The position numbers and the translations under genes were made by a program. DNA of 64,000 nucleotides, taken from the IMG/VR virus record IMGVR_UViG_3300036766_000889; one strand, given 5' to 3'. Shown here piece by piece: positions 34,800 to 49,636 of this stretch (position 1 is the stretch's first letter; the number at the start of each line of letters is the position of its first letter). Below the pieces are notes generated by a model. That model saw only the letters and a list, made by a program, of their open reading frames with translations. It was not told where the DNA came from and did not search any database. Origin of the DNA: a virus.

Positions 34800-34811
34800 A
34801 TTAATTATTAA

Positions 34812-34937
34812 GTGGTAACAAAATTTAGTGATTCAATTTCAGCTGCTCTACCACTGAGCTATACATAACTTTCGCTATGTAATTGGACTTGAACCAATGA
34901 CCCGCTGTTTGGTTGTAGAACCACCGGCATTTACCAC
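34812..34937 (-). ncRNA. yrlA: YrlA-type Y RNA with permuted tRNA-like module
   Basis: Terminal stem GTGGT/ACCAC; T-arm (TTGGTTCAAGTCCAA), closed acceptor-like stem (ACATAGC-GAAA-GTTATGT), then D-arm (AGCTCAGTGGTAGAGC); just downstream of Ro60. Confidence 0.85.
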
Positions 34938-35178: not shown

Positions 35179-36735
35179 TTATCCTACACCTATCATTTTC
35201 TCAATCTTTTCGACCCAGGCATCTTTATTGCCACCGTCAATGAAACTTGAAATCACACCGAACACTGCATCACTGAAACCACCAACGTTCAAACGGTCTT
35301 CATCGGTGATTACTTGTGCAGTTTGATTCGGTGTTAGGTCAATACACACAAGCTTGGCTTTACGATTACGCCTCTTGAAAGACAACCACTCGGTCGATAA
35401 ACCGGTACCTCTACGATAACCCCTATCAGCCCAGCTTTCGTTGTCGGAGACATATATCACAAGGTCAGCATTTGCATTTTCCTCGTTAAGCAAAGCGAGT
35501 GGAGCAGAACAGGTGGTACCGCCGCCTCCCACACTTGCAATTTGGGTAGCTAGAGTCATCACACTATCACGAGGATTGATCTTCAAATCAACAACATCTG
35601 TTTCAAACGGGATAACTCTTGCGTTTGGATTCTTGCGCAAAATCGCGGCAGCAATCAACGCAGCTATGTCTATGCAACGAGCCTTAGATGTAGCACCTTG
35701 ACGTTGTCCAGTAATCGGGCTACTCATGCTACCGGAAACGTCTACACAGACTACAACGTTACAATTGTAGCTCGGCACGTTGTTCAGCGAATGCTCCATC
35801 GCGTCCTGTAACGCGTTGGTCAATTCGGCAGGAATGTCAGTTGCATTCAAATATGCCATAAGTAGCTGGTATGGAAATACCCGCGCCTTATTGATTTCAT
35901 CAACATTGCGCAAACGTGCAGCCAGTAGACTAACCATTTCTGGGTTGTCTAGCACACCGTGACGCTTGAACGTGTTGAGATTCATACGAGTCATCTGCCA
36001 ACCAGCATTCTTTGCAACGGTTGTCCAGCCAGCCGTATCAAGATTAAGAGAGTCTAGCATCTGAAATGGGACGTCCGGGATGATCTGACTACGGTCAACC
36101 TTATAATTCTCGTACGCACGTACGAGCTCCGGAAGGTGTTCGACAGTATACGGCTTACCAATTAGATAAGCATACAACGCCTTACGATCGTCGCTAACCG
36201 GGTTCGGGCGAACCATCTTAACCAGATCAGATAGAGACGGCTTCTTTCCGACGCTATCTCGGAAAAGTTGGTCCGATGACCGAGATGCAAACCATTCACG
36301 AAGCATGCGTCGAGGAGCAGAACCAAAGGACTTACGGGACGTCTTACCAGATCGGACAATTTGCGCGAAATTTCTCGCCATTTTGCCATTATCGATAACT
36401 CGTGGAAACACAAGCTTAGCTGCAAGTAAGCCTTCTGGACCACGAGAACATAAATGCGCAAGCAAAATCGCTGGCATATCCTTCATATGACCAAGTTGGC
36501 GTGCATATACAGCGACTTTAGCCACATAACTAACTTCACAGTTAGCTGCGTGCTTCAAAACTTCATCCAACTGGTCAGACGCAGCAGCATAGTACGTGTT
36601 ACCGAAGCAACCGGTAGACGCAATTTGAGCAAGAGCTTGCTTTGACGTAAGCGAGTATGCATTCCCACCGGCATGATTTACAGCCGTTGAAACATGAGCC
36701 TGAGGCAGAGTGTTAAATAGTTGTTGATTTGTCAT
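35179..36735 (-). CDS. rsr: Ro60/Rsr TROVE-domain RNA-binding protein with vWA domain
   Basis: NHAGGNAY, MTRMNLNTF, RVFPYQLL, DVSGSM (MIDAS), GGT.CSAPL, SDNESW. Confidence 0.95.
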   Translation of the reverse strand: MTNQQLFNTLPQAHVSTAVNHAGGNAYSLTSKQALAQIASTGCFGNTYYAAASDQLDEVLKHAANCEVSYVAKVAVYARQLGHMKDMPAILLAHLCSRGPEGLLAAKLVFPRVIDNGKMARNFAQIVRSGKTSRKSFGSAPRRMLREWFASRSSDQLFRDSVGKKPSLSDLVKMVRPNPVSDDRKALYAYLIGKPYTVEHLPELVRAYENYKVDRSQIIPDVPFQMLDSLNLDTAGWTTVAKNAGWQMTRMNLNTFKRHGVLDNPEMVSLLAARLRNVDEINKARVFPYQLLMAYLNATDIPAELTNALQDAMEHSLNNVPSYNCNVVVCVDVSGSMSSPITGQRQGATSKARCIDIAALIAAAILRKNPNARVIPFETDVVDLKINPRDSVMTLATQIASVGGGGTTCSAPLALLNEENANADLVIYVSDNESWADRGYRRGTGLSTEWLSFKRRNRKAKLVCIDLTPNQTAQVITDEDRLNVGGFSDAVFGVISSFIDGGNKDAWVEKIEKMIGVG

Positions 36736-36780
36736 GATCTAACCTATAATAACATACAATCAAATAAGTTGTTTCAATCG

Positions 36781-36854
36781 TGCTGTGCGCGAGACTCGAA
36801 CTCGCAACCTCTCGGACCTAAACCGAGCGCCTCTGCCAATTGGGCTACCACAGC
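36781..36854 (-). tRNA. tRNA-Leu(TAG), short variable loop
   Basis: Cloverleaf; anticodon loop TTTAGGT. Confidence 0.85.
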
Positions 36855-36861
36855 AAAACAA

Positions 36862-37009
36862 CGGATGGGTTGGACTTACACCAACAGAGCGCCTGGGCTG
36901 GAGTCGAACCAGCTTCTTACCGTTCAGGAGCAAGCTCGTCAGCTTCGCAGCCTCGGTCGATATTCAGCTCGCTAGCAGCCTATTCCCGCCATTCACTGCG
37001 TTGCCATCC
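36862..37009 (-). ncRNA. unassigned tRNA-like RNA with two T-loop hairpins
   Basis: Terminal GGATGG/CCATCC stem; GCTGG-TTCGACT-CCAGC and GTTGG-TGTAAGT-CCAAC. Confidence 0.45.
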
Positions 37010-37095
37010 TGGTGCAAGAGATGGGATTTGAACCCATAAGACCTTTCGGTCGGATGATTTTAAGTCATCTGCGTATTCCATTCCGCCACTCTTGC
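37010..37095 (-). tRNA. tRNA-Leu(TAA)
   Basis: Long variable arm; encoded CCA. Confidence 0.95.
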
Positions 37096-37117
37096 GTAAC
37101 GATTGATCTATTAAATC

Positions 37118-37219
37118 AACCAACCACCAAACAATGCGGGCATCGAACCCACTCAGGTTTCACAGCAGTCTCCAGAGTTGCCACGCCCTGCTGGGGCTAC
37201 TCTTGTTTGGCGGTTGGTT
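37118..37219 (-). ncRNA. tRNA-shaped RNA with 17-bp terminal stem
   Basis: AACCAACCGCCAAACAA/TTGTTTGGTGGTTGGTT; D-like GCCC/GGGC; T-arm GTGGG-TTCGATG-CCCGC. Confidence 0.55.
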
Positions 37220-37262
37220 CATTAAACAGAGTTGCATACGACCCAATTAACTGAATTTACAA

Positions 37263-37916
37263 CTAAACTCGTCCGGAAGCGAAAGCCTTAGCAAATTCTC
37301 GTTTGAAAACTTCCGTCTGATCTTCGGGAAGTATGCCGACGTGGCGATAGAATTCAGTAATTGGGCGTACTACGGGAGCCAAAAAGCTTTCTCGTGATCC
37401 TCTCTGGCCCATGACTGTGGCTTCAATTGGTGTTGCCTTACGGGCGTAATAATTCCAGTTTTTCAAGGAAGTAAGAAATAAAGCGTAGGCCATATTTCCT
37501 ACAACATCCACGATAGCTGCCATATGATGGCCAACGCCATCATTGTGCGTGCAAATAGACCCAACTTTGATCATAGACAAAGGTATGACAGGTGGCGTGA
37601 TATCCGAAACTAGGGGAATTACTTTTTCATCAACGAGACTAAAAGGAGGTGGGAACTCCTCGAGATACTTCAGCATCTCTTCAGCTTTCTGCCGTGGTAG
37701 CGTCGAATCATTATCAAATGCAATAATAGTTGCCGAAGCAAAAATGAACTCATGAACCCCAACATCAGTGCGCGTATAAAACGTTCGAAAAAAACCTTTT
37801 TTTCCACGCAACACGCCACATGTCCACTCTATCATCGTTGCAACAGGCTTTGACTTTGGTATCGCTTTCCCACTGATATAATCTTTCAATGTGAAATCGT
37901 CGTCATTCATAGTCAA
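37263..37916 (-). CDS. hypothetical protein
   Basis: 217-aa ORF inside the tRNA array. Confidence 0.65.
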   Translation of the reverse strand: MTMNDDDFTLKDYISGKAIPKSKPVATMIEWTCGVLRGKKGFFRTFYTRTDVGVHEFIFASATIIAFDNDSTLPRQKAEEMLKYLEEFPPPFSLVDEKVIPLVSDITPPVIPLSMIKVGSICTHNDGVGHHMAAIVDVVGNMAYALFLTSLKNWNYYARKATPIEATVMGQRGSRESFLAPVVRPITEFYRHVGILPEDQTEVFKREFAKAFASGRV

Positions 37917-38119
37917 TGTCCAGTTTGAGTACTCGATTTTTCTTCTTTACTCAACCCTTCACCACAGTTACCACAGTTACCACTATGACATAGACCAAAA
38001 CATACAATTATGAACAAAGCTAAAATTGCTGAGTCATCTTTTCTTCGTGCCATTGCTACAAGAACAGCAGTAACTCCGAAAATCATAGCAAGAATTAAAG
38101 TGTTTGTTGATATATCCAT
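37913..38119 (-). CDS. small membrane protein
   Basis: AAGGAG SD; two TM helices. Confidence 0.6.
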   Translation of the reverse strand: MDISTNTLILAMIFGVTAVLVAMARRKDDSAILALFIIVCFGLCHSGNCGNCGEGLSKEEKSSTQTGH

Positions 38120-38135
38120 AAACTCCTTGTATCAA

Positions 38136-38218
38136 TGGTTGCGGGCGAAGGAATTGCACCTACTTGTCCGAGGAACCGGGTTATGAGCCCGGTGGGTTTC
38201 TGTTACCCCATGCCCGCA
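38136..38218 (-). tRNA. tRNA-Met(CAT), initiator-like
   Basis: Three G-C pairs (GGG/CCC) closing the anticodon loop; enlarged variable region; CCA. Confidence 0.85.
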
Positions 38219-38235
38219 TAATGTAACGAATTCAG

Positions 38236-38308
38236 TACGGGGTGCGGGACTCGAACCCGCCTCAAACTGCCGTGTAAAAGCAGCGCACTCCCTGAATGCG
38301 AACCCCGC
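38236..38308 (-). tRNA. tRNA-Val(TAC)
   Basis: Cloverleaf. Confidence 0.9.
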
Positions 38309-38397
38309 ATAATTATTTCACAACGCGACTTGTTTTCCACAACGTTTACATCGGGCGTCAGGTTCGCCACGTCGTTTCCACCAGTCACGAATTCCAT

Positions 38398-39114
38398 TCA
38401 TGGAATACTAACCTCTCTTGCGTGCCGTTCTTGATTTCGTTTGGAACGCTCTGTCTCAAGTGAACCAATCACATGTTCAAGAATCTTTGCGACAGTTGCA
38501 TAGGATCCGACCTCACAAACGAACGACATCATGCCGTCTTCGTAAACCTTGAAGGTTTCTTCGGGCAGCCCAAGCATGTCGATTCCTTCGCAATACACAC
38601 TTTTGTGGCTGCCAGCCCGGTAAATGCGGCCGTCTTTTCTTATGATGGTGCCGGATGCCCAGTTTTTGTTGTACCACTCATCCGACCCATCGGGCGGCTT
38701 CTCTTTTTTCGTATAACCAACATAACGTTCAACTTCGGCCGCGTACTTCTCTGGGCTCCATTCCGAGTACATCACATGATAGGGGATGTGGATTGGAGAG
38801 TCCGAAATCACCACGACCTTGATATTGTAGAAGTTGTCTCGGATGAAGCAATAGGCCGATACTTGATTGTATGGCGTGAACCTGAAGCAGGAGACCGGAA
38901 GTCCTACTGATTTACTAGTTTGTGTCCCTACAATTCTTGGTGGGTACACTTCATCCTGACTGTAGTTAGGAAGGATGGCCGCCACACCACCAATTTTTAG
39001 GATCTGGTTTTCTACACCACTCCTATAGATCAGATCTTCATCTGGCGCGTTTGTACTGCCCCAGGTTTTGAGGTCGATGCCGTTGGCATAAATTGCGTTT
39101 AGTTCTTGCATCAC
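38398..39114 (-). CDS. hypothetical protein
   Basis: VGTQTSKSVGLPV motif; coupled to the upstream HD gene. Confidence 0.65.
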   Translation of the reverse strand: MMQELNAIYANGIDLKTWGSTNAPDEDLIYRSGVENQILKIGGVAAILPNYSQDEVYPPRIVGTQTSKSVGLPVSCFRFTPYNQVSAYCFIRDNFYNIKVVVISDSPIHIPYHVMYSEWSPEKYAAEVERYVGYTKKEKPPDGSDEWYNKNWASGTIIRKDGRIYRAGSHKSVYCEGIDMLGLPEETFKVYEDGMMSFVCEVGSYATVAKILEHVIGSLETERSKRNQERHAREVSIP

Positions 39115-39866
39115 AGAGCAGCCAGGTACACGTCAAAGGAAGCATTTCGAGGAAGTTCACCCGCCTCTACACGTGCTTTCAATTCTGTCATTATGATACC
39201 AAGTTCACGACCAGGCGGTAGGCCGAGATGAGCACCTAAAGCATCACCGAGACCTTTTGGTAGGGCTGGAGGCTTTGAATCAGCTAACCGTAAAAACTCC
39301 ATACGTACTTTAAGACCGTCAACTCGAGAAAGTTGAGCCATACGTTTCGCAGGATGCTTAGTTGTGCAGTCTGCTTCGGCTACTGCTAACACAGAATCAG
39401 CCGCAGGTCCAAGTTCAAGGATCAATCGACGTACCGCTGAATCAGTCCAATCAGGATTGTACGCTTCAACCCTGCCAAGATACCTAATGATAAACTCGAT
39501 ATCTTTTATTTCTGATTCATTAAGCAGAAAACCAAGCCGACTAGCGTCTTTCTCAAACAATTCTGCACCGACAAGTTCATGTACAGGGAAACCGATTTCA
39601 CCATTGGGGTATAGACGAAATGTACGTGGTTTTCCTACATCATGATACAACGCAGCTAGTCGCAAGATAAAAGACGGGCGCGTCTGTTTTACCACCTGTT
39701 TGGTGTGTGCCCATAGATCCTTGTGACCGGTATTTGACCCACCGAACCCGACCAGCCCTTGTACAGCTGGGAACAGTTGCGTTATGTCACCGTTCTCCTG
39801 CAGAGCTTCAAGTTTGACATCTACATCATCACTGATGAGAATTTCATATAGTTCATGTCTATTCAT
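39111..39866 (-). CDS. stand-alone HD domain of CCA-adding enzyme type (start revised to ATG 39866)
   Basis: HKDLWAHT, LRLAALYHDVGKPRT, HELVGA, WTDSAVRRL, ADCTT, LG..PG.ELG; no nucleotidyltransferase DxD domain. Confidence 0.8.
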   Translation of the reverse strand: MNRHELYEILISDDVDVKLEALQENGDITQLFPAVQGLVGFGGSNTGHKDLWAHTKQVVKQTRPSFILRLAALYHDVGKPRTFRLYPNGEIGFPVHELVGAELFEKDASRLGFLLNESEIKDIEFIIRYLGRVEAYNPDWTDSAVRRLILELGPAADSVLAVAEADCTTKHPAKRMAQLSRVDGLKVRMEFLRLADSKPPALPKGLGDALGAHLGLPPGRELGIIMTELKARVEAGELPRNASFDVYLAAL

Positions 39867-39907
39867 GGTGAAAACACTACGTTCGGTACAGGGAAATTTA
39901 CACTCTG

Positions 39908-39976
39908 TGCCACCGGACGTAATCGAAACGTCACCGACGCCCATATGAAAGGCGCGTTCTTCCTAAGATCGATGGC
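39908..39976 (-). tRNA. tRNA with CAT anticodon (Ile2 or Met), reduced D-arm
   Basis: GCCATCG/CGGTGGC acceptor; CGCCT-TTCATAT-GGGCG; GACGT-TTCGATT-ACGTC. Confidence 0.7.
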
Positions 39977-39979
39977 TTG

Positions 39980-40051
39980 TACCCTCGGCAAGACTCGAAC
40001 TTGCATGTACTTCGTTCGTAGCGAAGTGCCCATCCTTTGGACCACGAGGGT
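39980..40051 (-). tRNA. tRNA-Arg(ACG)
   Basis: Cloverleaf. Confidence 0.9.
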
Positions 40052-40066
40052 ATGAATTAAACGGAC

Positions 40067-40140
40067 GGTGATCACGGCGGGACTCGAACCCGCATCAGCC
40101 AGCTTCGGAGGCTGGTGCCCTTCCTTTAGGCGTCGTGACC
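40067..40140 (-). tRNA. tRNA-Arg(CCG)
   Basis: Cloverleaf. Confidence 0.9.
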
Positions 40141-40214
40141 TGGTGCCCGCGAGAGGATTTTCACCCCTATCAACTACTTAATTGGTAGACGTGCTAGAAT
40201 TGCACCACGCGGAC
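40141..40214 (-). tRNA. atypical tRNA (loop CAATTAA, nominal ATT), identity undetermined
   Basis: Intact acceptor stem and CCA; A33; T-loop TGAAAAT. Confidence 0.55.
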
Positions 40215-40218
40215 TTAG

Positions 40219-40291
40219 CACCCCCGGCAGGAATCGAACCTACATAGTTCCGCTTAGAAGGCGGACGCCTGATCCATTAGACTACGGGGGC
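40219..40291 (-). tRNA. tRNA-Arg(TCT)
   Basis: Cloverleaf. Confidence 0.92.
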
Positions 40292-40300
40292 AAGATATTC

Positions 40301-40371
40301 GGAGACCCGCGATAGATTTGAACTATCTTAATTAGTTTTGCAGACTAACCGCCTCACCTGAGGAACGGGTC
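40301..40371 (-). tRNA. tRNA-Cys(GCA), minimal D-arm
   Basis: U73; D-arm CCTC-AGGT-GAGG. Confidence 0.85.
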
Positions 40372-40388
40372 ATATTTTTGAATCTTCC

Positions 40389-40559
40389 TGTCCATTCACC
40401 AAACGCGTCGACTTAAGTTTACACTCGGGCCAATTGAAACGGATCCAACATGATTCCCCAAGACCATCTCGGTGCCGATGCCAGCCTTGCTTCCAAAGAT
40501 GCCAAGGCAGACGTGGGTATAACAACTGGACCGAGCCACTCAACTCAACGGAACGAACA
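40389..40559 (-). ncRNA. 6S RNA-like rod with central bubble
   Basis: Long interrupted closing helix, unpaired TTATACCCAC, apical hairpin; about 170 nt. Confidence 0.55.
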
Positions 40560-40590
40560 CCTTTAACCATCACCATCGAACTATCCCCAT

Positions 40591-40982
40591 TGTGGACTCG
40601 TGCGGAATCGAACCGCAGTCCTACAAGACTAACGAGCAGCTTCTACGTGTGTATCTGGAGTTCCGAGTGTTAATAAGCACCCCGGTGTCCCAGCCTCCAT
40701 GCTTTGGGGCGCGACAGGTTTCCCTGCTTTGCCTCCACCATCTGTCTGTAAAGTGAACTTCCCACAGCCGTCAGAACGCCGTGGCACAGGTTGCTTTTAA
40801 TCACGCCGCACGGAGTCGATGGCAACTACCTACTCCGTGCAACGGTTTCACGCGGCCTTTAGGACCGGTGCAACATATGCGTTGTCGTTCGCACTTACGT
40901 TGGTCTCTTGATAACCCGGCCTGAAGACCATCCGGGACACGCTGCTACTTATATCATCTCGCAGTCGAAACCTTTCGAGCCC
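40591..40982 (-). ncRNA. ssrA: tmRNA; tag (A)ANDNAYVAPVLKAA* at 40848-40892
   Basis: 5' GGGCTCGAAAGGTTTCGAC, 3' GGTTCGATTCCGCACGAGTCCA; G3-U70 pair; resume site after TAAGT. Confidence 0.95.
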
Positions 40983-41033
40983 GTATAACAGAACAATTAA
41001 GTTAACAAAAGTACAATCAAACCAAGTAAACCA

Positions 41034-41213
41034 TCAATCTTCGTTATGCCCGATGAGTGGTGATTTACCTGGACAAAGGCAGTGATACTTGATGAAATCA
41101 CAAACAGGGCAAGGCTCTACGCCTAGCAATTGAGCCAAGAACCGAATATGATCCGGGTTATCGGCCGCAGCACGAGCTAGGATCTCAATGGCTTCGTACG
41201 ACGAAATTTTCAT
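41034..41213 (-). CDS. small Cys-containing protein
   Basis: MKISSYE...CPVC..HCLC. Confidence 0.45.
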   Translation of the reverse strand: MKISSYEAIEILARAAADNPDHIRFLAQLLGVEPCPVCDFIKYHCLCPGKSPLIGHNED

Positions 41214-41229
41214 TTCTATCCTACAGATC

Positions 41230-41302
41230 GGTGCGAGCGGAGAGAATCGAACTCTCACTTACGGTTTGGAAGACCATCGTGCGACCATCACACCGCGCTC
41301 GC
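41230..41302 (-). tRNA. tRNA-Gly(TCC)
   Basis: Cloverleaf; A73. Confidence 0.9.
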
Positions 41303-41399
41303 TTTTTGTTTTCGTCCCAGTGCAACTTACCGTGGCAATTTGCGCAAAGCACCAAGTCCTGCTTGGAAGGCTGATGCCAGGCCATTAGACGTCGCTCGC
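41303..41399 (-). pseudogene. 5' half of tRNA-Gly(TCC) fused to an HNH C-terminal remnant
   Basis: GCGAGCG..CTTCCAA followed by a frame reading VLCANCHGKLHWDENK. Confidence 0.7.
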
Positions 41400-41429
41400 G
41401 AAAATTACACTAGCGGAATTGAAATGAAA

Positions 41430-41834
41430 TTATGTTTTTGGACCTGTTCCGAAATAGGGTGTTGCAAACCCGCCTTTGATCAATTCTTGGTTAGCGTTAA
41501 ACTCAGGTTGATCAGGCGGGGTCACGAAAATGTCTGCTAAATACCGTCCATATTTATCGGGTTTGTAACTAACAATTCGAATGGTCCCCGTATCAAGCAA
41601 ACGAGACAACTCTGTTGACGAAGCCAAACCCGCTTGCTTCGTCACCCCGACGACTTCAGGAGTATTAATCCCATACAAACGAAATTCAACGATTGCTTCT
41701 TTAAGTAAAATAACAGAGTCTAGGATATTGAATCCAAAATCAACTGGAAGGGTAAATGTCTTACTCAGTTTCAAATAGACTGTATCACCGTCTACGACTC
41801 GATGGACTGTGGCCTGATATTCATATTGTTTCAT
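41430..41834 (-). CDS. thermonuclease (SNase) family nuclease
   Basis: RVVDGDT, RLYGINTPE, DKYGRYLA. Confidence 0.9.
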   Translation of the reverse strand: MKQYEYQATVHRVVDGDTVYLKLSKTFTLPVDFGFNILDSVILLKEAIVEFRLYGINTPEVVGVTKQAGLASSTELSRLLDTGTIRIVSYKPDKYGRYLADIFVTPPDQPEFNANQELIKGGFATPYFGTGPKT

Positions 41835-41867
41835 ATACCTACCGTACCAACTTCATAATCGGTTTAG

Positions 41868-41938
41868 GGCCCTATGACAGAATCGAACTGTCCTAACGTG
41901 CTTACAAAACACGGACATCACCACAATGTTTATAGGGC
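41868..41938 (-). tRNA. tRNA-Thr(TGT)
   Basis: Cloverleaf. Confidence 0.88.
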
Positions 41939-41983
41939 AAGCATACGTCACAAATTGACGGTTTAAATCATATCCCGGTATAG

Positions 41984-42052
41984 TGGAGAGACCGGGAATT
42001 GAACCCGGCGCGGTCGGTTTGCAAGACCAACCTCCGCCCCAGCGGCCTCCCC
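41984..42052 (-). tRNA. tRNA-Ala(TGC), minimal D-arm
   Basis: G3-U70, A73; D-arm CCGC-TGGG-GCGG. Confidence 0.8.
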
Positions 42053-42080
42053 GAAATTTTTATCGAGTGTCTAAAGGTGT

Positions 42081-42365
42081 ATGATGAAACCACTAGAAGC
42101 CCTAGACAGTGCGATAAGTTATGGTCTCAGGCACCATCAATTCAATCGACGTGGAGTGTATGGAAAAACTCCCGGAGCAGTCATCGGACGAATTGGTGAC
42201 GAAGCTCGAGAAGCTTTATCCAAACTCACATCTGATGAATTAGCTGGTGTGCGTATTGAAAAAGATGAAGTAGGTAGTGATGATTATTTCGCGGATCTTG
42301 AGGTCCGGAAACTCAAGATAGCTTTTGATCAAAAATGCAAGTATCGTGTTACACGACCTTCATAG
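42081..42365 (+). CDS. hypothetical protein, antisense insertion in the tRNA array
   Basis: 94-aa ORF between tRNAs. Confidence 0.45.
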   Translation: MMKPLEALDSAISYGLRHHQFNRRGVYGKTPGAVIGRIGDEAREALSKLTSDELAGVRIEKDEVGSDDYFADLEVRKLKIAFDQKCKYRVTRPS

Positions 42366-42436
42366 GGCCCGCACCGCGAATTGAACGCGGGTCTCGATCT
42401 TACCGGGATCGAATACTACCATTGTACTATGCGGGC
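42366..42436 (-). tRNA. tRNA-Thr(GGT)
   Basis: Cloverleaf; C33. Confidence 0.88.
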
Positions 42437-42443
42437 AAACTAG

Positions 42444-42516
42444 AGCCCCTGATCGGGATCGAACCGACCTAGCCCTCCTTACGAAAGAGGTACCTCTCCA
42501 TTGAGGTGACAGGGGC
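42444..42516 (-). tRNA. tRNA-Thr(CGT)
   Basis: Cloverleaf. Confidence 0.88.
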
Positions 42517-42519
42517 ATC

Positions 42520-42592
42520 GGTGGAGATCCGGAGAATCGAACTCCGATTTCTAGCTTGCAAGGCTAGCACACGCCCGTTGTGTTAGATCCCC
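42520..42592 (-). tRNA. tRNA-Ala(TGC)
   Basis: G3-U70. Confidence 0.9.
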
Positions 42593-42601
42593 ATGATACA
42601 G

Positions 42602-42673
42602 TGGACGTGGCTGGAATCGAACCAGCGGCTTCCTGCGAGTCATGCAGGCACTCGGCCTCTGAGCTACACGTCC
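42602..42673 (-). tRNA. tRNA-Val(GAC)
   Basis: Anticodon loop ATGACTC. Confidence 0.88.
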
Positions 42674-42681
42674 GTATAAAT

Positions 42682-42757
42682 TGGTAGGCCGTGAGGGGAT
42701 CGAACCCTCTCCTGTCGCTTATAAGGCGACTGCACTGAACCACTGTGCTAACGGCCC
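42682..42757 (-). tRNA. tRNA-Ile(TAT)
   Basis: GTCGC-CTTATAA-GCGAC; CCA. Confidence 0.9.
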
Positions 42758-42761
42758 ATAA

Positions 42762-42950
42762 CTATTTCGAAGACTTGATCAATTCCGTGATTCGCATGTG
42801 CTGAAGAGTCAAAATCGCGGCTATCTGTGCTTGCGTCATGCTACCAATGACATCTAGCGCAGACTGAAACAAATCTATGGACGGATGTCCCTTGTCCAGC
42901 AAAGAAGCTATGTATCGTTTGATCACAATCTGCTCTTCTTCGTATTCCAT
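42762..42950 (-). CDS. small hypothetical protein
   Basis: AGGAGG SD upstream. Confidence 0.55.
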   Translation of the reverse strand: MEYEEEQIVIKRYIASLLDKGHPSIDLFQSALDVIGSMTQAQIAAILTLQHMRITELIKSSK

Positions 42951-43014
42951 GATTCCTCCTATGCTATGCTACAAAACCGGTCCATGCAGAGATAATCGAA
43001 CTCCCATAGTTCGC

Positions 43015-43569
43015 CTATAACAACAAACGTCTGGACTCCAGGCTACTCTCCGAAGACTCTCGATCGGCTAACTCATGCAACTCGCCATGACAGTTGGCGC
43101 AGACCAGCATGGTCTTATCCAATTCCAGCTTCAACTTAGCCCAGCCTGATACCGATCTTGTTGCTACCGTGAAATCCTTACTTGCTGGATCCGTATGGTG
43201 GAAAACCATCGAACGAAGACACTTATCATAACCGCAGCGACAACATACCCCGCCTTTATAGGCGACGGCCATGGCTTTGAGCGATGTTCGTTTTCGGTTG
43301 GCTACGCAAGAGTTGCAGAAAACCCTGGTGGCCCCGCGCCTTGCGCTTCGCAAATAACTATATTTGCGAAAACAGCTGGTGCACCTAATTTCTACAGGCT
43401 TCCGGGTATGCCTAGATCCAGGCAAAATTGGCCGCGAATTTCTGGAACCGTAGGGAGAGCAGGTAAAGCAATACTTCCTCTTGGAAAGAGCCATCCGCCT
43501 TCCGTTTATAATTACCGTGGCTGGTATTTCAACGTCGCAAGCCAAGCACCGCTTAGTGGTAGTAGACAT
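43015..43569 (-). CDS. HNH homing endonuclease
   Basis: KGGVCCRCGY...FHH...ELDK..LVCANCH. Confidence 0.85.
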   Translation of the reverse strand: MSTTTKRCLACDVEIPATVIINGRRMALSKRKYCFTCSPYGSRNSRPILPGSRHTRKPVEIRCTSCFRKYSYLRSARRGATRVFCNSCVANRKRTSLKAMAVAYKGGVCCRCGYDKCLRSMVFHHTDPASKDFTVATRSVSGWAKLKLELDKTMLVCANCHGELHELADRESSESSLESRRLLL

Positions 43570-43631
43570 AACGCCATATCATACCATAAGACGAGCGCAT
43601 TAGAAAAGCCAGGACGACCTCAAGCCAGCGT

Positions 43632-43705
43632 TGGTTGGCCCGGAGGGAATTGAACCCTCGCCGCCCGCTTATCAAGCGGATGCACGACCTTCGTGCTGCG
43701 GGCCA
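43632..43705 (-). tRNA. tRNA-Ile(GAT)
   Basis: Cloverleaf; CCA. Confidence 0.92.
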
Positions 43706-43737
43706 ATGACATCCCCTTCCACTAGACGATGCGTGGA

Positions 43738-43814
43738 TGGTGCTCCAGGCAGGACTCGAACCTGCATAAAAGCCGCTTTAGGAAAGCGGTGCCCATCCTT
43801 TGGACCACTGGAGC
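43738..43814 (-). tRNA. tRNA-Arg(CCT)
   Basis: Cloverleaf; CCA. Confidence 0.92.
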
Positions 43815-43816
43815 AT

Positions 43817-43893
43817 TGGGTTACATGGCGGGAATCGAACCCAGCTAACACCTGATCCACAATCAGGCCGCTATCCATTAGCGTTCATGCAAC
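43817..43893 (-). tRNA. tRNA-His(GTG)
   Basis: G-1:C73; CCA. Confidence 0.88.
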
Positions 43894-43998
43894 ATAACAC
43901 AGTTTAGGGCCCTTGCGAGGGGTCAATCTCTTACGAGATTCTGCTTCCCGTCACTACAAAGTTTGGCTTTGCGTTTCACCAAGAGTCCCATCCTGTGC

Positions 43999-44074
43999 GG
44001 TCGGAGTGACTGGAATCGAACCAGCTCAATCTCTTGCTCCCGAAGCAAGCGGGCAGCCATTACCCCACACTCCG
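43999..44074 (-). tRNA. tRNA-Pro(CGG)
   Basis: Cloverleaf. Confidence 0.9.
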
Positions 44075-44191
44075 TAAAAGAAGACCCCTGATAGCACTCT
44101 ATGGCTTGCTGTACCCGTGAGAGATGGGCCGACGTGCAAACCGAGTAATCTACCGTTTCTCAATCCCTGCCGGGGTCACCGCAGGAAACAG

Positions 44192-44263
44192 TCGAGGTGG
44201 CAAGAATCGAACTTGCGATCTCTGCATCCCAAATGCAGCGCCATTCCACTTGGCTACACCTCG
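44192..44263 (-). tRNA. tRNA-Pro(TGG)
   Basis: Cloverleaf. Confidence 0.92.
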
Positions 44264-44369
44264 ATAAGGGCTGCCGAAGAAGGCGTATCCTTCAGCTTAG
44301 TAGCTTTGCCCTAGCTAGCGTGTCTTTCAGCACGCGACTGGACGCCAGCCAGTCTGACCGTTGCCGGTC

Positions 44370-44456
44370 GGCGGAAGACGGAGGACATGCTCCCCAGACG
44401 CTTGCGCGTCCCCTTGGATTAGCAATCCAGGATGATCCTTGATCATTTCGTCTTCC
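44370..44456 (-). tRNA. tRNA-Ser(GCT) with 8/4 fold
   Basis: Acceptor GGAAGACG/CGTCTTCC; T-stem GGGG/CCTC; long variable arm; G73. Confidence 0.8.
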
Positions 44457-44482
44457 AAATTGTCACAGCTCTTTGTTGATTA

Positions 44483-44680
44483 TCAGCGACGATGAAAAGC
44501 CACGATGAGAAGGATCACTCCATCCTTGTCTTGGTAGCGCCATTCCCCGCGATGCTTTTCGTACCGCTCCAGGCTACCCAAAAGACCACGGGCTTGATTC
44601 CTGGTTAGATCAAACCACGGTCCCCATGATTTGGAGCCGTGGAAGCGACAAGCGGTGTACTCGATCCATCCGTGTTCCAT
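44483..44680 (-). CDS. small hypothetical protein
   Basis: 65-aa ORF between tRNAs. Confidence 0.45.
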   Translation of the reverse strand: MEHGWIEYTACRFHGSKSWGPWFDLTRNQARGLLGSLERYEKHRGEWRYQDKDGVILLIVAFHRR

Positions 44681-44716
44681 GACCTAAAGACGTTTGCCTT
44701 TTAGCCAACTGACACA

Positions 44717-44819
44717 TGGCGGAGAAAATAGGAGTCAGCGGAAACCGGACGAGAACGCCATGCCTTGCGGCACACACCATTTTCGAGATGGGTCTTGCTC
44801 CTCAGCAAGTTCAGTTTCC
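44717..44819 (-). pseudogene. 8/4 tRNA-Ser(CGA) with shortened T-loop, plus an orphan tRNA 3' end
   Basis: GGAAACTG/CGGTTTCC; T-arm GGCG-TTCT-CGTC; followed by GACTCCTATTTTCTCCGCCA. Confidence 0.65.
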
Positions 44820-44848
44820 AGAGAGCGGGACCATTCAAGGTCGAACTC

Positions 44849-44970
44849 TGTCTTGCTCCTGCAAGTTCCGTTTCCAATCAGAAATCGTACCGCCCAAGGT
44901 CGAACTCTTGTCTTGCTCCTGCAAGTTCCGTTTCCAATCAGAAATCGTACCGCCCAAGGTCGAACTCTTG
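44849..44970. repeat. exact 60-bp tandem duplication containing tRNA-Ser 5' fragments
   Basis: Identical sequence at period 60; minus strand GGAAACGGAACTTGCAGGAGCAAGAC resembles the tRNA-Ser(CGA) 5' end. Confidence 0.9.
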
Positions 44971-45145
44971 CGGGTTCGATCGTTTCCGATCCGGTTTTTT
45001 AACCAGGCAATGTGCAGGGCTGGTGTTGCTTGCGTTTTACCATTACCATTCTTTGCTGAGTCCAACTCCTGTTTCCAGTACAACTCCTGTTTCCGGTATA
45101 GTTCACTTTCCATTTCGTTCATAATTCACCTCATGGATAATACAG

Positions 45146-45228
45146 CGGAAGACGCCGGAATCGAACCGACTCAGCCTTGCGGCCTTATTTGCTTTCCAAG
45201 CAAACTCCTGACCATTCGGATGTCTTCC
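45146..45228 (-). tRNA. tRNA-Ser(GGA)
   Basis: Long variable arm; G73. Confidence 0.88.
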
Positions 45229-45233
45229 GGTAG

Positions 45234-45317
45234 CGGAGAAGGCGAGAATCGAACTCGCTCAGCCTTTTGGGCCTTATCGGTATTCAAAGCCGACTCCTGA
45301 CCATTCGGGTCTTCTCC
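45234..45317 (-). tRNA. tRNA-Ser(TGA)
   Basis: Long variable arm; G73. Confidence 0.88.
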
Positions 45318-45354
45318 AACTCGTTACACCGTTCTCTGAGAGTTTGTTCTCCGT

Positions 45355-45534
45355 TCATGCAAGTGTGACTAACTTCCAACCGATACCTTCATCCATCATG
45401 TCAGTATTTGCTATATAAATATCAGAATTTGGAGATTCAACGTCTTCCATAACAGCAGTTCGATGTTCATGACTCAGTTTCAATACGCGCCATAACTTTC
45501 CTTTGCGTTCCCAAACTTCATTTACTTGAGGCAT
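45355..45534 (-). CDS. 59-aa hypothetical protein, not in the ORF track
   Basis: MPQVNEVWERKGKLWRVLK... fills the inter-tRNA gap. Confidence 0.5.
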   Translation of the reverse strand: MPQVNEVWERKGKLWRVLKLSHEHRTAVMEDVESPNSDIYIANTDMMDEGIGWKLVTLA

Positions 45535-45574
45535 GTTTGAACTCTACCGCGTAAGCCACAGACAGTACACTTAG

Positions 45575-45646
45575 CGTCCCGTATCGGAATCGAACCGATG
45601 TTCCCTGACTGAGAATCAGGTTGCCTGGCCTCTAGCAGAACGGGAC
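45575..45646 (-). tRNA. tRNA-Glu(CTC)
   Basis: Cloverleaf. Confidence 0.9.
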
Positions 45647-45647
45647 A

Positions 45648-45724
45648 TGGCGGGACCGACGAGAATCGAACTCGCCTCGACCTGGCGTGACAAGCCAGCG
45701 GCGTCTCCAGACGCCTCCGATCCC
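45648..45724 (-). tRNA. tRNA-Asp(GTC)
   Basis: Cloverleaf; G73; CCA. Confidence 0.9.
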
Positions 45725-45829
45725 AAAAGCCGACCGCGACCAACGGAAGTTGTTGATCCGCTGACCAGTGATTCATCGTGCGCACGAACGCCACGGCCAC
45801 GGCGTGTCTTGGCTAGCTAGACCTTCGAC

Positions 45830-45903
45830 TGGTTCGGGCGGAGAGGATCGAACTCCCATAGAAGGTATCAAAAACCTTCGTCTTTCCATTAGACGACGCC
45901 CGA
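45830..45903 (-). tRNA. tRNA-Gln(TTG)
   Basis: U1-A72; CCA. Confidence 0.88.
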
Positions 45904-45910
45904 ATAACAC

Positions 45911-45983
45911 GGCAGGGGTAGAGGGAATCGAACCCACGTTGACTGCTTCAGAAACAGCTGCCAAACCACTTGGCGATACCCCA
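45911..45983 (-). tRNA. tRNA-Gln(CTG)
   Basis: Cloverleaf. Confidence 0.9.
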
Positions 45984-45989
45984 ACGAAG

Positions 45990-46123
45990 TGGACACAACG
46001 GGAATCGAACCCGCTAATTCCTGTTTTTGCAGGATACGGAAAACTGCAGTGACTGATATTTTCGGGTGGCCATCTCCCTACTAACTCAGATCCAGTTTTC
46101 CAGCGCACCGTGGCTTTGTGCCC
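45990..46123 (-). ncRNA. tRNA-Ala-like RNA with a long arm replacing the anticodon arm
   Basis: GGGCACA/TGTGTCC-A with G3-U70; T-arm GCGGG-TTCGATT-CCCGT; GGAAAACTG/CAGTTTTCC arm. Confidence 0.65.
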
Positions 46124-46136
46124 GTAACAATTGTAG

Positions 46137-46208
46137 TGCTCCCACGGAGAATCGAACTCCGCTCGCCGGGGTGAAAACCAAGCATTCTGACCACTAAACT
46201 ATGGGAGC
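46137..46208 (-). tRNA. tRNA-Glu(TTC)
   Basis: Cloverleaf; weak anticodon stem. Confidence 0.85.
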
Positions 46209-46282
46209 AAACTTTCTAATGTGGTACGTGGGGTCAAACTTAATCTTCAACATCCGGACCAGTACCTTGGTCCGTGAATTTG

Positions 46283-46354
46283 AGCGACTGATGTGAATCG
46301 AACACATGAAGTCCATTTTGGCAAAATGGTGCCTTACCACTAGGCTACAGTCGC
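46283..46354 (-). tRNA. tRNA-Gly(GCC)
   Basis: Cloverleaf; U73. Confidence 0.92.
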
Positions 46355-46397
46355 GTGCGGACCCTCAAACACTGTTACTGCATGTTGATTAATACTG

Positions 46398-46470
46398 TGG
46401 CTAGGGTCGGTATCGAACCGACTACACCCCGGGCTTCAACCGAGTGCTCTACCGTTTGAGCTACCTAGCC
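46398..46470 (-). tRNA. tRNA-Phe(GAA)
   Basis: Cloverleaf. Confidence 0.92.
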
Positions 46471-46473
46471 AAA

Positions 46474-46657
46474 ACCTTGATCTTCGGCAGTTGGTTCCGT
46501 AGCAAGGAACCGGCCAGACTTAGCTTTTGGAGGTTGCTAGACCCTCCTACTTGCCGACCGCATGAGCCTTTCGAGGGGCGTGCGTTCTATAGGCCATAAG
46601 CCTGCTGTCTGGTATTGAAGCCTACGACCCGCGAGTTAACTCAGGTCTGATCAAGGT
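46474..46657 (-). ncRNA. unassigned ~185-nt multi-stem structured RNA
   Basis: Terminal ACCTTGATC/GATCAAGGT stem enclosing several hairpins. Confidence 0.55.
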
Positions 46658-46659
46658 AG

Positions 46660-46728
46660 CAAGCCGTGACGGAATCGAACCGCCGCCTACTGGTTTGGAA
46701 TCAGTTCGGTCACCATGACCTACGGCTT
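46660..46728 (-). tRNA. tRNA-Trp(CCA), minimal D-arm
   Basis: AAGCCGT/ACGGCTT-G; 5' end overlaps the GIY-YIG stop codon. Confidence 0.85.
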
Positions 46729-47653
46729 ATTTCAATAAATTATTCGACAGAGCAGTTGTTTTAACAACTGGAGTGTTCTTACTAGCATGGTATCTAAGCA
46801 TCACTTTAGAATTTTTGCATTTCTTACAAATTAAATATGGTCTTCCAGTATCTGACTCTCCTGTTCTAACATAACAGTTTTCAATAGGAACAATACCATG
46901 CACTTTACAAAGTTTATTGGTAGGCGACCTATCCTGTTGAAATTTAGTTTTAGCTTTTTCTGATATTGTTTTTGCTATTTTTGCCTTGCAATCGTTACTA
47001 ATAGATCTTCCAACAGCGGCAAGTTTGATATTCATCCTTGCCTTATCCGAAAATTTTCGGCCTCGACTACGAGAAGCGTTTTTTTCTATGATTTCATGAG
47101 TAAGAATGGGTGGTTTGCAACGTCCATCTCGATGAGCTTTTTTGGCTGCTATAGATATTTTTCTTTTCACATCCGGGAGAGCTTGAATATGACGTGATAT
47201 TTCAATTCTCTTTGCTCGAGATTCTGATGTATTGAGTGCTGCTTTATTTGCAGCACGAGCTTGAGGTGTATGAAATCTAAGGACGACACCGTTTTGTTTT
47301 TCTCGATACTCTGGACGATCCCATGGATTTCGACGAATTGGATGCGGCGTATGAGATCCGCCCTTCATTAAGTTAAATCCAAACTTTGGATCTCGCGTAT
47401 TTTCTTGTTCGATTATCGCTTCTTCAGTCGCATTTGCACCTTCAAGGTCCCGACTCATCGCCAGAACTTCATGGGAGAAGGCATCCTTGCCATACTTACG
47501 AATTGCATTCGGAAAATACCAACGTCCGCCCTTGGAATTCTTAGCTTGGGAGCAATGTTGATTCCAACGATGCATCATTGTATGGCTAGTTAAGCCAATG
47601 TAACGACGACCCGATTCTATATGAGTGTGACAGTAAATGGTCCAGCGTTTCAT
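46727..47653 (-). CDS. GIY-YIG homing endonuclease with NUMOD-like repeats
   Basis: WTIYCHT...RRYIGLT...RW..H...AIRKYG...E...GFNL. Confidence 0.85.
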   Translation of the reverse strand: MKRWTIYCHTHIESGRRYIGLTSHTMMHRWNQHCSQAKNSKGGRWYFPNAIRKYGKDAFSHEVLAMSRDLEGANATEEAIIEQENTRDPKFGFNLMKGGSHTPHPIRRNPWDRPEYREKQNGVVLRFHTPQARAANKAALNTSESRAKRIEISRHIQALPDVKRKISIAAKKAHRDGRCKPPILTHEIIEKNASRSRGRKFSDKARMNIKLAAVGRSISNDCKAKIAKTISEKAKTKFQQDRSPTNKLCKVHGIVPIENCYVRTGESDTGRPYLICKKCKNSKVMLRYHASKNTPVVKTTALSNNLLK

Positions 47654-47675
47654 GCTGAACCCAATCCATAAAGCT

Positions 47676-48092
47676 CTAACTTGACATGATTTCGATAACC
47701 TCGAGTTCTCGTAGAAAGTTAAGCAAAATTTCTGGAGTCATTTCCTTGAGAGGAAGCGCCTCAGTTTCCGCGATTACAGTGAAATCTCGTTCTTTGTATT
47801 CGCTCTTCTTACCGTAAACAAGTCGATCGATCTTTTGAATCATTCCACCATATGAAGATAGGATATAAACTGCACCCTTATGATGTTTACGATTGAGTAT
47901 GTCAAACTGAAATGACCAATTTTTATCTCCCCGGACGTATTTGTAAGGAGAATTTCGTGAACGTTGTTCGAATATCCGTTGTAAGAACGGGTCTTTACAA
48001 TCTAGTTCTTGCTCCTTCCAGCGCATTTCGCGCAAAACATTATTCAGGTAATCAAGTGAAGGGTTTACCTCTACTATGTATTTTCTTGACAT
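47676..48092 (-). CDS. hypothetical protein
   Basis: 138 aa; ends VIEIMSS. Confidence 0.6.
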   Translation of the reverse strand: MSRKYIVEVNPSLDYLNNVLREMRWKEQELDCKDPFLQRIFEQRSRNSPYKYVRGDKNWSFQFDILNRKHHKGAVYILSSYGGMIQKIDRLVYGKKSEYKERDFTVIAETEALPLKEMTPEILLNFLRELEVIEIMSS

Positions 48093-48182
48093 AAATCGTA
48101 CCGTTGTTCGGCACGATTTATGGTGGTCGGTATTCCTCCATCATATCAACTATACATTGGAAATTAAAGAGTATCACACAAT

Positions 48183-48266
48183 TGGCTCCGAGTCCAGGAT
48201 TCGAACCTGGAATGGATTTCTCCGCACGGGTAACAACCGTGTGCCTTACCATTAGACTAACTCGGA
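48183..48266 (-). tRNA. tRNA-Asn(GTT) with long variable arm
   Basis: U1-A72, G73, CCA; variable arm GGA-GAAA-TCC. Confidence 0.88.
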
Positions 48267-48336
48267 ATAAAAAACAATTCGCGCACCGAGCCATGCCGAG
48301 CAACCCCGATAGGGCCCGGTGCGCGTTGAAACAACT

Positions 48337-48356
48337 TATTCAATTGTCAAAGACTC
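48337..48356 (-). promoter_or_regulatory. boxA-like antitermination element
   Basis: GAGTCTTTGACAATTGAATA resembles rrn boxA TGCTCTTTAACA. Confidence 0.5.
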
Positions 48357-48404
48357 AGACACTTAGCGTTCGGAGGTTGATCCCTGACGGGCCTCGTCGT
48401 GTCT

Positions 48405-48479
48405 TGGTCGGCAGCACGAGAATCGAACTCGCCTAAGCCTGGGTAAGAACCAGGTGCATCTCCTTGATGCTAACTGCCG
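48405..48479 (-). tRNA. tRNA-Lys(CTT)
   Basis: Cloverleaf; CCA. Confidence 0.88.
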
Positions 48480-48506
48480 ATGTTTTCTTGAGCACTCAGT
48501 TTTTGT

Positions 48507-48698
48507 CTAATGTTTCGTTGTGGACTCTTCCTGTTCATTACCACACCAATGACAACGTTGAGTCATGACGCCTTCTTTGATACCGGCGTCTTCCCACATA
48601 CAAACACCGGTTCTTCCGCAGGGTGGAACTGGTTTAAGTAACTCACGTGTAGCATTTTTAAACTCACGTTCACGTTTGGTTAGTGTCCTAGTTTTCAT
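48507..48698 (-). CDS. small zinc-ribbon protein
   Basis: MKTRTL...CHWCG. Confidence 0.5.
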   Translation of the reverse strand: MKTRTLTKREREFKNATRELLKPVPPCGRTGVCMWEDAGIKEGVMTQRCHWCGNEQEESTTKH

Positions 48699-48711
48699 GA
48701 CATGTTTCTTG

Positions 48712-48787
48712 GGTGGGACCGGCGGGACTTGAACCCGCAACCGTTCGGTTAAAAGCCGACTGCTGCTTCCGATTGAGCTACGGCCCC
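48712..48787 (-). tRNA. tRNA-Lys(TTT)
   Basis: Cloverleaf. Confidence 0.92.
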
Positions 48788-48848
48788 AAGGAATACTTGA
48801 GTGCAGTAGCTAGGTTTGAGTTCCTTCATGATTACCGTGACTTTCTTG

Positions 48849-48934
48849 TGGTGGAGCCGTGCAGAGTCGAACTGCCTAGTCTAAGACCCGGCGTTTACAG
48901 CGCCAGTCGCCTTCCGAGGACGAACCCCGGCTCC
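48849..48934 (-). tRNA. tRNA-Tyr(GTA), atypical D region
   Basis: TGGCG-CTGTAAA-CGCCG; A73; CCA. Confidence 0.85.
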
Positions 48935-49015
48935 GTAATAGATACGAGAGCAGGTGAGCGTCGATAACTTTCGTGCAGTGGTTTGTGTGAATTGAACATT
49001 GTTATTTCGAACCCT

Positions 49016-49056
49016 AAAAACATTGAGACCGCCTCTAGTTTCCTAGGGCGGTCTCA
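49016..49056 (-). terminator. intrinsic terminator (attenuator) ahead of the tRNA array
   Basis: TGAGACCGCCCTAG-GAAA-CTAGAGGCGGTCTCA followed by ATGTTTTT. Confidence 0.8.
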
Positions 49057-49083
49057 CGCGAACGAGTGTTCTTGTGATTCCGC

Positions 49084-49227
49084 CTACGTCGTATCCTCAT
49101 GGCTAATGGGGCTGACGGCTGGGCGTTGATTCCCTCCGAGCCATATAAATGACGATGTCGCTTCCAAGCGTACGCCATTCAGCGTCGGCTGGACCGTCGT
49201 CATATAAGATTTTATGGATCTGGACAT
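49084..49227 (-). CDS. putative 47-aa leader peptide MSRSIKSYMTTVQPTLNGVRLEATSSFIWLGGNQRPAVSPISHEDTT
   Basis: Starts 10 nt after the -10 box; its stop codon overlaps the antiterminator strand. Confidence 0.6.
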   Translation of the reverse strand: MSRSIKSYMTTVQPTLNGVRLEATSSFIWLGGNQRPAVSPISHEDTT

Positions 49228-49237
49228 CGAAGTATTT

Positions 49238-49266
49238 ACTTTAGCACAGGCTGTTTATGGCGTCAA
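49238..49266 (-). promoter_or_regulatory. sigma70-type promoter of the tRNA/RNA-repair block
   Basis: TTGACG-17 nt-TAAAGT with extended TG. Confidence 0.75.
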
Positions 49267-49387
49267 GGCCCTTGTTTATGATCTTACACTGAAAAGATTC
49301 GAATTTACGTCAGAAGGTAGTTCTTCGTCCTCACCCGCACATTTTTCACATATGATGAATACCGGAGCCATCCGACAATCGTGGAAA

Positions 49388-49636
49388 TCATGTATCGTGA
49401 ACTCTCTCAACTACCCCGTGTTTGCAGCCCCCATCTCCAAAAGGGTGGAGGCCCCAATACTTTATCTTGCATTCTGGACAAGTACGTTGTGAAGGACCAG
49501 TTGCTCCAGTTGCTCCAGTTAACCCGACAGCTTGATTCGGCCACATCGGACCAGTGCACCCGGCAGCCCCCGTTGCCCCGAAAGTATCAATCACTGATAC
49601 TTTCTTTTCGTTTTCAAGTGTCATGGACTCTCTCAA
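49388..49636 (-). CDS. small protein with GAT collagen-like triplets and C-terminal Cys/His motif
   Basis: GATGATG; RTCPECKIKYWGLHP...VVERVHDT. Confidence 0.55.
   Translation of the reverse strand: MRESMTLENEKKVSVIDTFGATGAAGCTGPMWPNQAVGLTGATGATGPSQRTCPECKIKYWGLHPFGDGGCKHGVVERVHDT

Follow-up and report, generated by a model that had tools for sequence, protein, structure and literature searches.

The window analysed here, a 64,000-nucleotide stretch of DNA from an uncultured jumbo phage, carries on its minus strand, at the head of a large tRNA array, a regulatory element whose conservation in related phages confirms, at the level of sequence, that it is real. This element is likely to be a whiB7-like attenuator that responds to a broad range of translation stresses and controls a phage tRNA operon. 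It consists of a promoter, a 47-codon leader ORF and a terminator followed by the first tRNA gene, all of them located on the minus strand where an earlier note on this DNA had placed them, together with an antiterminator that excludes the terminator. These parts and their conservation were read directly from the DNA, and from them we infer translation of the leader, polymerase pausing and regulation of the array. The reason for which large phages carry tRNAs has long been debated, codon compensation and the replacement of host-destroyed tRNAs being the two contending answers. If a leader gauges the speed of decoding and turns on the array accordingly, these tRNAs would amount to a rescue kit used on demand, and such a leader would represent both a natural list of the codons that a phage monitors and a compact, broad translation-stress sensor.

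The predicted promoter is of the sigma70 type (49238..49266, minus strand), with a −35 box, a 17-nt spacer and a TG-extended −10 box (9/12 match). Such a match alone is no better than chance (19 promoter-like sites observed vs. 21.4 in shuffles), and the −35 and extended −10 boxes are retained in nine of the ten homologues. A GTGTAAA-like motif also recurs 20–50 nt before the −35 box, at 49289 in the window and ahead of several homologous promoters, and is possibly a second, phage-specific promoter. The leader ORF (49084..49227, minus strand) is near-leaderless in the window, where its start is separated from the −10 box by about 10 nt and lacks a Shine-Dalgarno sequence; the initiation signal of this copy is the weakest among the homologues. 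Its 47 codons include 36 distinct ones and encode 19 of the 20 amino acids (no Cys), as counted in the earlier note, which had judged this breadth only modestly above chance; taken alone it is indeed weak (p 0.12–0.19), and its significance comes from the homologues rather than from the window leader.

Downstream of the ORF lies a predicted intrinsic terminator (49016..49057, minus strand; −26.6 kcal/mol), with its stem at 49057–49024 and a U-tract at 49020–49016. A consensus terminator scan missed it, probably because the U-run begins 3–4 nt past the stem. The sequence around the leader stop had been proposed to pair with the 5' strand of this terminator in a mutually exclusive antiterminator, and it does pair as claimed. 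The 5' arm of the antiterminator (region 2, 49074..49084, minus strand) begins inside the stop codon and nearly repeats the sequence of the terminator's 3' arm, and its partner (region 3, 49047..49057, minus strand) is the arm common to both structures. At −20.0 kcal/mol, the window antiterminator encloses an inner 4-bp hairpin (49060..49071, minus strand; stem retained and loop altered in the related contig L015), includes a 2 × 2 mismatch in its core and carries an additional distal 4-bp helix. The region 2/region 3 duplex beats all 970 control windows in the case of the window itself, and at least 99.2% of control windows in each of the seven phages tested.

Folding of the nascent RNA with and without the stop region masked, using an assumed ribosome footprint of 13 nt, gave the outcome expected by the earlier note. 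The antiterminator is predicted to form (P 0.8–1.0) when no ribosome is present or when a ribosome is stalled up to 2–3 codons from the stop, and its probability is 0 with a ribosome at the stop in all seven phages tested in silico. For the full-length RNA at equilibrium, the terminator is preferred in the window, G007 and G008, and the outcome is mixed in the other tested phages; since the terminator invariably wins in the full-length window RNA, the switch must operate during transcription there, i.e., kinetically. Structure is also predicted within the leader RNA (z −1.2 to −7.0 relative to shuffles), and a hairpin predicted in the last third of the ORF (49099..49144, minus strand) is a candidate RNA-polymerase pause hairpin. 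In most homologues a hairpin closes 2–6 codons before the stop, with a z-score that is significant in only 3 of 10.

The cassette is found in nine related jumbo-phage contigs, as a sigma70-type promoter, a 46–54-codon ORF, an antiterminator and a terminator, followed by a Tyr-Lys array. A search for tRNAs in 17 related phage contigs yielded five large arrays (G003, G007, G008, G010 and G014), each of which opens with the cassette and continues with tRNA-Tyr and tRNA-Lys (the G003 and G008 copies having longer 5' leaders than the window), and L015 (helicase 92% identical) displays the promoter, a 48-codon ORF with all 20 amino acids, and matching start and stop contexts. We also searched 2.9 million viral contigs with an RNA-only pattern composed of the three RNA arms and the U-tract, which gave 23 matches: 5 already known, 3 new (L184, L188 and L196) and 15 others. 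The three new loci each have a stop 2–3 nt before region 2, a 46–54-codon ORF and a Tyr-Lys array, and are recovered by a covariance model at E about 1e-10; among the remaining 15 matches, there is neither a tRNA nor an ORF with a start codon that ends at this position. An open leader frame would be expected by chance with a probability of 0.09–0.22 per homologue and is found in 10 of 10, the ten sequences being related, so that joint p-values overstate their independence.

There is one copy of the attenuator per genome searched, at the head of the array, with no second copy in the window. In five relatives with few tRNAs, a single one of them complete, the covariance model gave no full match over the whole length searched. 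GenBank phages yielded no relative of the leader, and exact-motif scans of viral and genome contigs returned chance matches or nothing. In L147 (G001), which has a small tRNA array without the attenuator, a different large hairpin with a U-tract precedes the first tRNA-Leu.

Sequence changes between the homologues follow the two alternative pairings. Across the terminator alignment, 95% of the cells are paired, and 2 of the 9 pairs are changed on both sides. L015 and G014 each have, at a different position, a C-to-U change in region 3 that is matched by a G-to-A change in region 2, such that the antiterminator stays Watson-Crick and the terminator pair becomes G-U; in L196, all three arms have changed together. 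The sequence of the antiterminator's outer helix varies among phages, and a MAFFT-based comparison of the antiterminator was weaker because region 2 was shifted by one column in some rows. Region 2 starts 2–4 nt from the first base of the stop codon in all ten homologues. Both the ORF and the pairing, on whose conservation the earlier note had staked its model, are kept in the nine relatives, with covariation and with strong selection on codon content.

This selection is not visible at the peptide level, as the leader peptide is not conserved: identity between the seven leaders compared (44–62%) is near random (47.6 ± 2.9 when shuffled). All 20 amino acids are present in 8 of the 10 leaders, the exceptions being the window (without Cys) and L196 (without His and Trp). 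Among the first seven leaders compared, six have the full set (joint p about 1e-9.7, assuming independence), and all seven contain exactly one Trp, His, Tyr and internal Met each, at unrelated positions. In a permutation test on the codons of the ten leaders (conserved last 8 codons dropped, 5000 permutations), 20 codons were present in at least 8 leaders vs. 8.0 ± 1.9 after permutation, a number reached in none of the 5000 permutations (p < 0.0002), and distinct codons summed to 325 over the ten leaders vs. 273.5 ± 6. Synonymous choice is biased as well: Tyr, His, Asn and Asp codons are U-ending in 42 of 46 cases vs. a 62% background (p 7e-6), other NNY codons are mostly C-ending, and in four-codon boxes, codons ending in C, A or G are preferred. 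Judging from these patterns, the leader is under selection for codon content, not for the peptide, and would offer about one test codon per tRNA species by way of the codons most dependent on a single tRNA.

We consider the following course of events likely. A ribosome would follow RNA polymerase along the leader, the candidate pause hairpin in the last third of the ORF perhaps keeping the two in step. If the ribosome reached the last 2–3 codons in time, region 2 would be covered, the terminator would form and transcription would stop at about 49016. If it were held earlier, by an uncharged, cleaved or unmodified tRNA or by an inhibitor, or if it never started, the antiterminator would form first and the polymerase would enter the tRNAs. 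Spare tRNAs are in this case probably made only when ribosomes slow down. The cassette has the composition of a ribosome-mediated transcription attenuator, with a leader ORF under selection, a terminator before the genes and an exclusive antiterminator, which in silico is masked by a ribosome at the stop and left free by a ribosome upstream. The ribosome-stall model of the earlier note is supported to that extent by conservation, covariation and codon selection. Its further claim that loss of any tRNA would open the array was too broad, since Cys, AAG, CGG, AGG and ACY codons are missing from the window leader, and the antiterminator is masked once a ribosome stalls within the final 2–3 codons; the sole Asp codon is often so close to the stop (2–3 codons) that a ribosome stalling on it would be expected to cover region 2.

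Given its near-leaderless start, the missing Shine-Dalgarno sequence, the loss of Cys, and an antiterminator of −20.0 kcal/mol set against a terminator of −26.6 kcal/mol, the window copy might have decayed, or act mostly as a fixed terminator, within a family of true attenuators. We consider this unlikely, as L015 (62% leader identity), which also has a short 5' end, keeps the start, frame and stop, and G007 combines a still weaker antiterminator with all 20 amino acids; moreover, the window has the added distal 4-bp helix, and its duplex outperforms every one of the control windows. The fact that leader RNAs fold better than shuffles, with a central hairpin at the same place in the window and L015, could instead indicate that the structured leader RNA is bound by a ligand or protein that throws the switch, in a riboswitch-, 6S- or T-box-like manner, and that the ORF is incidental. 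However, the leaders are near random in sequence and their folds differ, no Rfam match was obtained for the leader even at E 10, and the evenness of the codons and the position of the stop would go unexplained without translation, all of which makes this reading quite improbable. An identity of the leader as 6S, T-box or another Rfam family was rejected, as no covariance model matched.

Translation could also matter for timing only, the array opening upon general translation shutdown without any codon-level sensing. The antiterminator is the default fold in the absence of a ribosome, so that any translation block would open the array, but the single Trp, His, Tyr and internal Met of each leader and the choice of codons would then have no explanation, and we give this version very little credence. 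That a chance ORF simply lies ahead of an ordinary terminator is hardly tenable: it is contradicted by the ten homologues, the covariation and the out-of-sample matches, even if the promoter match and the 19 of 20 amino acids of the window are unremarkable alone.

The translation-stress attenuator that we favour belongs to a mechanism type already known from the mycobacterial whiB7 uORF (10.1101/2023.06.02.543512). For the whiB7/wblC uORFs of mycobacteria and streptomycetes, efficient translation leads to a Rho-independent terminator and stalling to an antiterminator; the amino-acid content of the whiB7 uORF sets what is sensed, loss of its start codon raises expression, and removal of a sampled codon abolishes induction by the matching starvation (10.1101/2023.06.02.543512). 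The breadth of amino-acid content is similar, and the M. smegmatis whiB7 uORF contains every amino acid except Cys (10.1101/2023.06.02.543512), as does the window leader. The output differs, in that whiB7 is a chromosomal transcription factor whereas here a phage tRNA array would be controlled, with tRNA-Tyr rather than whiB7 following the terminator. The phage cassette would work like the whiB7 uORF attenuator but is a member of neither the whiB7 nor the trpL type. It shares with the classical leader-peptide attenuators (trpL, hisL, thrL, pheL) a leader ORF, exclusive II:III and III:IV hairpins and a biased choice of synonymous codons (PMC1183508), and may share a pause hairpin. Unlike these, the phage leaders follow a one-of-each design without a codon run for a single amino acid, and the product is tRNA, not biosynthetic enzymes. 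Furthermore, no I:II helix wins in the absence of a ribosome and the antiterminator forms instead (P 0.8–1.0), so that a lack of translation predicts read-through in the phage cassette.

Among other systems, the E. coli toiL-topAI uORF likewise senses many kinds of translation stress, but does so through translational attenuation and Rho and controls a toxin-antitoxin pair (PMC12121999). The Anabaena trn operon is likewise a long tRNA array, which has moved horizontally, responds to translational stress by induction and is co-regulated with rtcB, but it is plasmid-borne and controlled by the TrcR repressor at its promoter rather than by an RNA switch (PMC8421152, PMC10272220). Counter-defence phage tRNAs include the T5 tRNA-Tyr, which acts against retron-Eco7, and tRNA-Lys, which acts against PrrC (PMC11555353), and the first two tRNAs of the window array are Tyr and Lys(UUU); in the portion of that article drawn on here, the tRNA is supplied by a strong promoter, without mention of a feedback sensor. 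The literature searched yielded no published account of an attenuator acting on tRNA genes, most subscription papers being beyond the reach of that search.

Two short ORFs downstream of the terminator, both on the minus strand, contain codons for the amino acid of the tRNA that they run into. Mini-ORF 2 (48895..48999, 34 codons) starts just after the terminator and runs into tRNA-Tyr(GUA) (48849..48934, minus strand), the first gene of the array in all ten phages; its sole Tyr codon, TAT at 48966–48964, lies 32 nt before the tRNA. In the homologues, mini-ORF 2 usually enters tRNA-Tyr, and a TAT is located 29–40 nt before the tRNA in 9 of 10; among 40 control ORFs, 2 contain Tyr. Mini-ORF 3 (48749..48829) contains Lys codons and runs into tRNA-Lys(UUU) (48710..48788, minus strand); all ten homologues have a mini-ORF with Lys codons ahead of their first tRNA-Lys, with a weaker control (Lys in 15 of 40). 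Both mini-ORFs, conserved with their Tyr or Lys codons and leading into the first two tRNAs, are new here. A ribosome finishing them would cover the 5' end of the tRNA, and so might restrain its maturation as long as cognate tRNA is abundant, which is speculation at this stage. An extension to cognate-codon mini-ORFs before every tRNA was rejected, as a cognate residue occurs in 17 of 40 control ORFs and was judged near chance, and the pattern does not reach beyond the first Tyr and Lys genes. Likewise discarded as support was a hairpin that would occlude the 5' end of tRNA-Tyr, as its predicted −10 to −16.6 falls within the control range (−11.1 ± 5.3).

The window comes from a phage whose DnaB has relatives 52–70% identical on IMG/VR contigs, five of which are complete (362–436 kb). 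Between dnaB (52771–49934) and a primase-like gene (29317–28658) lies a 20-kb minus-strand island, which is absent at the same site in relatives with helicases 86–88% identical. The tRNA array (36780..48934) comprises 33 genes predicted by ARAGORN and interspersed nuclease genes. The island, which holds several nucleases, also includes a tmRNA (40590..40982), an HD-domain protein resembling part of a CCA-adding enzyme (39111..39944, below the family cut-off), Ro60/Rsr (TROVE-vWA; 35179..36735), a YrlA-type Y RNA (34809..34937; Rfam RF02553, 64.5 bits, E 6e-13, narrowly missing the gathering score of 69), elongation factor Ts (31662..32252; best matches 46–49%, to Myxococcota, Paenibacillus and others) and the RNA ligase RtcB (30496..31665), all on the minus strand. 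The Y RNA directly follows Rsr/Ro60, with rtcB 3 kb beyond, an arrangement that we take to resemble the bacterial rsr-yrl-rtcB repair module.

About 670 nt beyond the attenuator, a boxA-like site (48341..48356, minus strand), predicted as an rrn-type Nus antitermination signal and resembling the B. subtilis rrn boxA (PMC13753749), may make the polymerase processive through the long array. Eight of the 10 homologues have this site, between +320 and +645 relative to tRNA-Tyr and after the first Lys/Gln genes; the pattern was chosen post hoc, with 0.04–0.14 occurrences expected per homologue. A second terminator-like hairpin with a U-tract (48269..48323, minus strand; −27.5 kcal/mol) is located just before tRNA-Asn; it is conserved in L015 with an altered stem sequence, and similar hairpins occur 500–700 nt into G007, G008 and G014. 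A common structured element is also found in G008, G014 and L184, 500–650 nt after tRNA-Tyr and between the boxA-like site and the second hairpin.

Control by the attenuator of the tmRNA, Rsr/YrlA, EF-Ts and RtcB genes, 8–17 kb downstream, is unproven on account of this second conserved hairpin, the 17-kb distance to RtcB and a plus-strand ORF at 33640–34197. Within the partial stretches available for the relatives, rtcB is found in the array of G010 only. A two-tier sensor of tRNA attack, in which the attenuator opens the 20-kb island and the Tyr and Lys mini-ORFs gate maturation of tRNA-Tyr and tRNA-Lys(UUU), both of them established targets of anti-phage defences, is best regarded as a tentative and rather doubtful extension. 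Under such a scheme, failure of any sampled tRNA would open the tRNAs, tmRNA, CCA-like enzyme, Rsr-YrlA, EF-Ts and RtcB, and tRNA-Tyr and tRNA-Lys(UUU) would mature only if the ribosome stalled before running into them.

Several minor features of the region were also noted. A tRNA-Ile at 42682–42757 has a UAU anticodon, which is unusual among bacteria, and the leader ORF has two ATA codons. ARAGORN missed tRNA-like genes at 45651–45725, 45234–45318 and 40144–40214, the first two of which look like Asp(GUC) and Ser(UGA), respectively. Non-coding stretches at 46470–46660 and 44370–44460 are 82–91% identical in L015 without any Rfam or ARAGORN call, and are possibly unrecognised structured RNAs. 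The DnaB helicase (49934–52771) contains a LAGLIDADG intein, and small genes upstream of the promoter (49388–49928 in the window, 6818–7321 in L015) share a terminal Cys/His-rich motif. Finally, two near-identical strains in ENA (ERZ27247851 and ERZ27247880) differ from the window by an additional gene, which encodes an Endonuclease VII of 138 aa and lies between the terminator and tRNA-Tyr (at window ~49003–48991, a position deduced from gene offsets), two other near-identical strains are without it, like the window, and homing may explain the ~45 nt that are identical between the window and L015 just before tRNA-Tyr.
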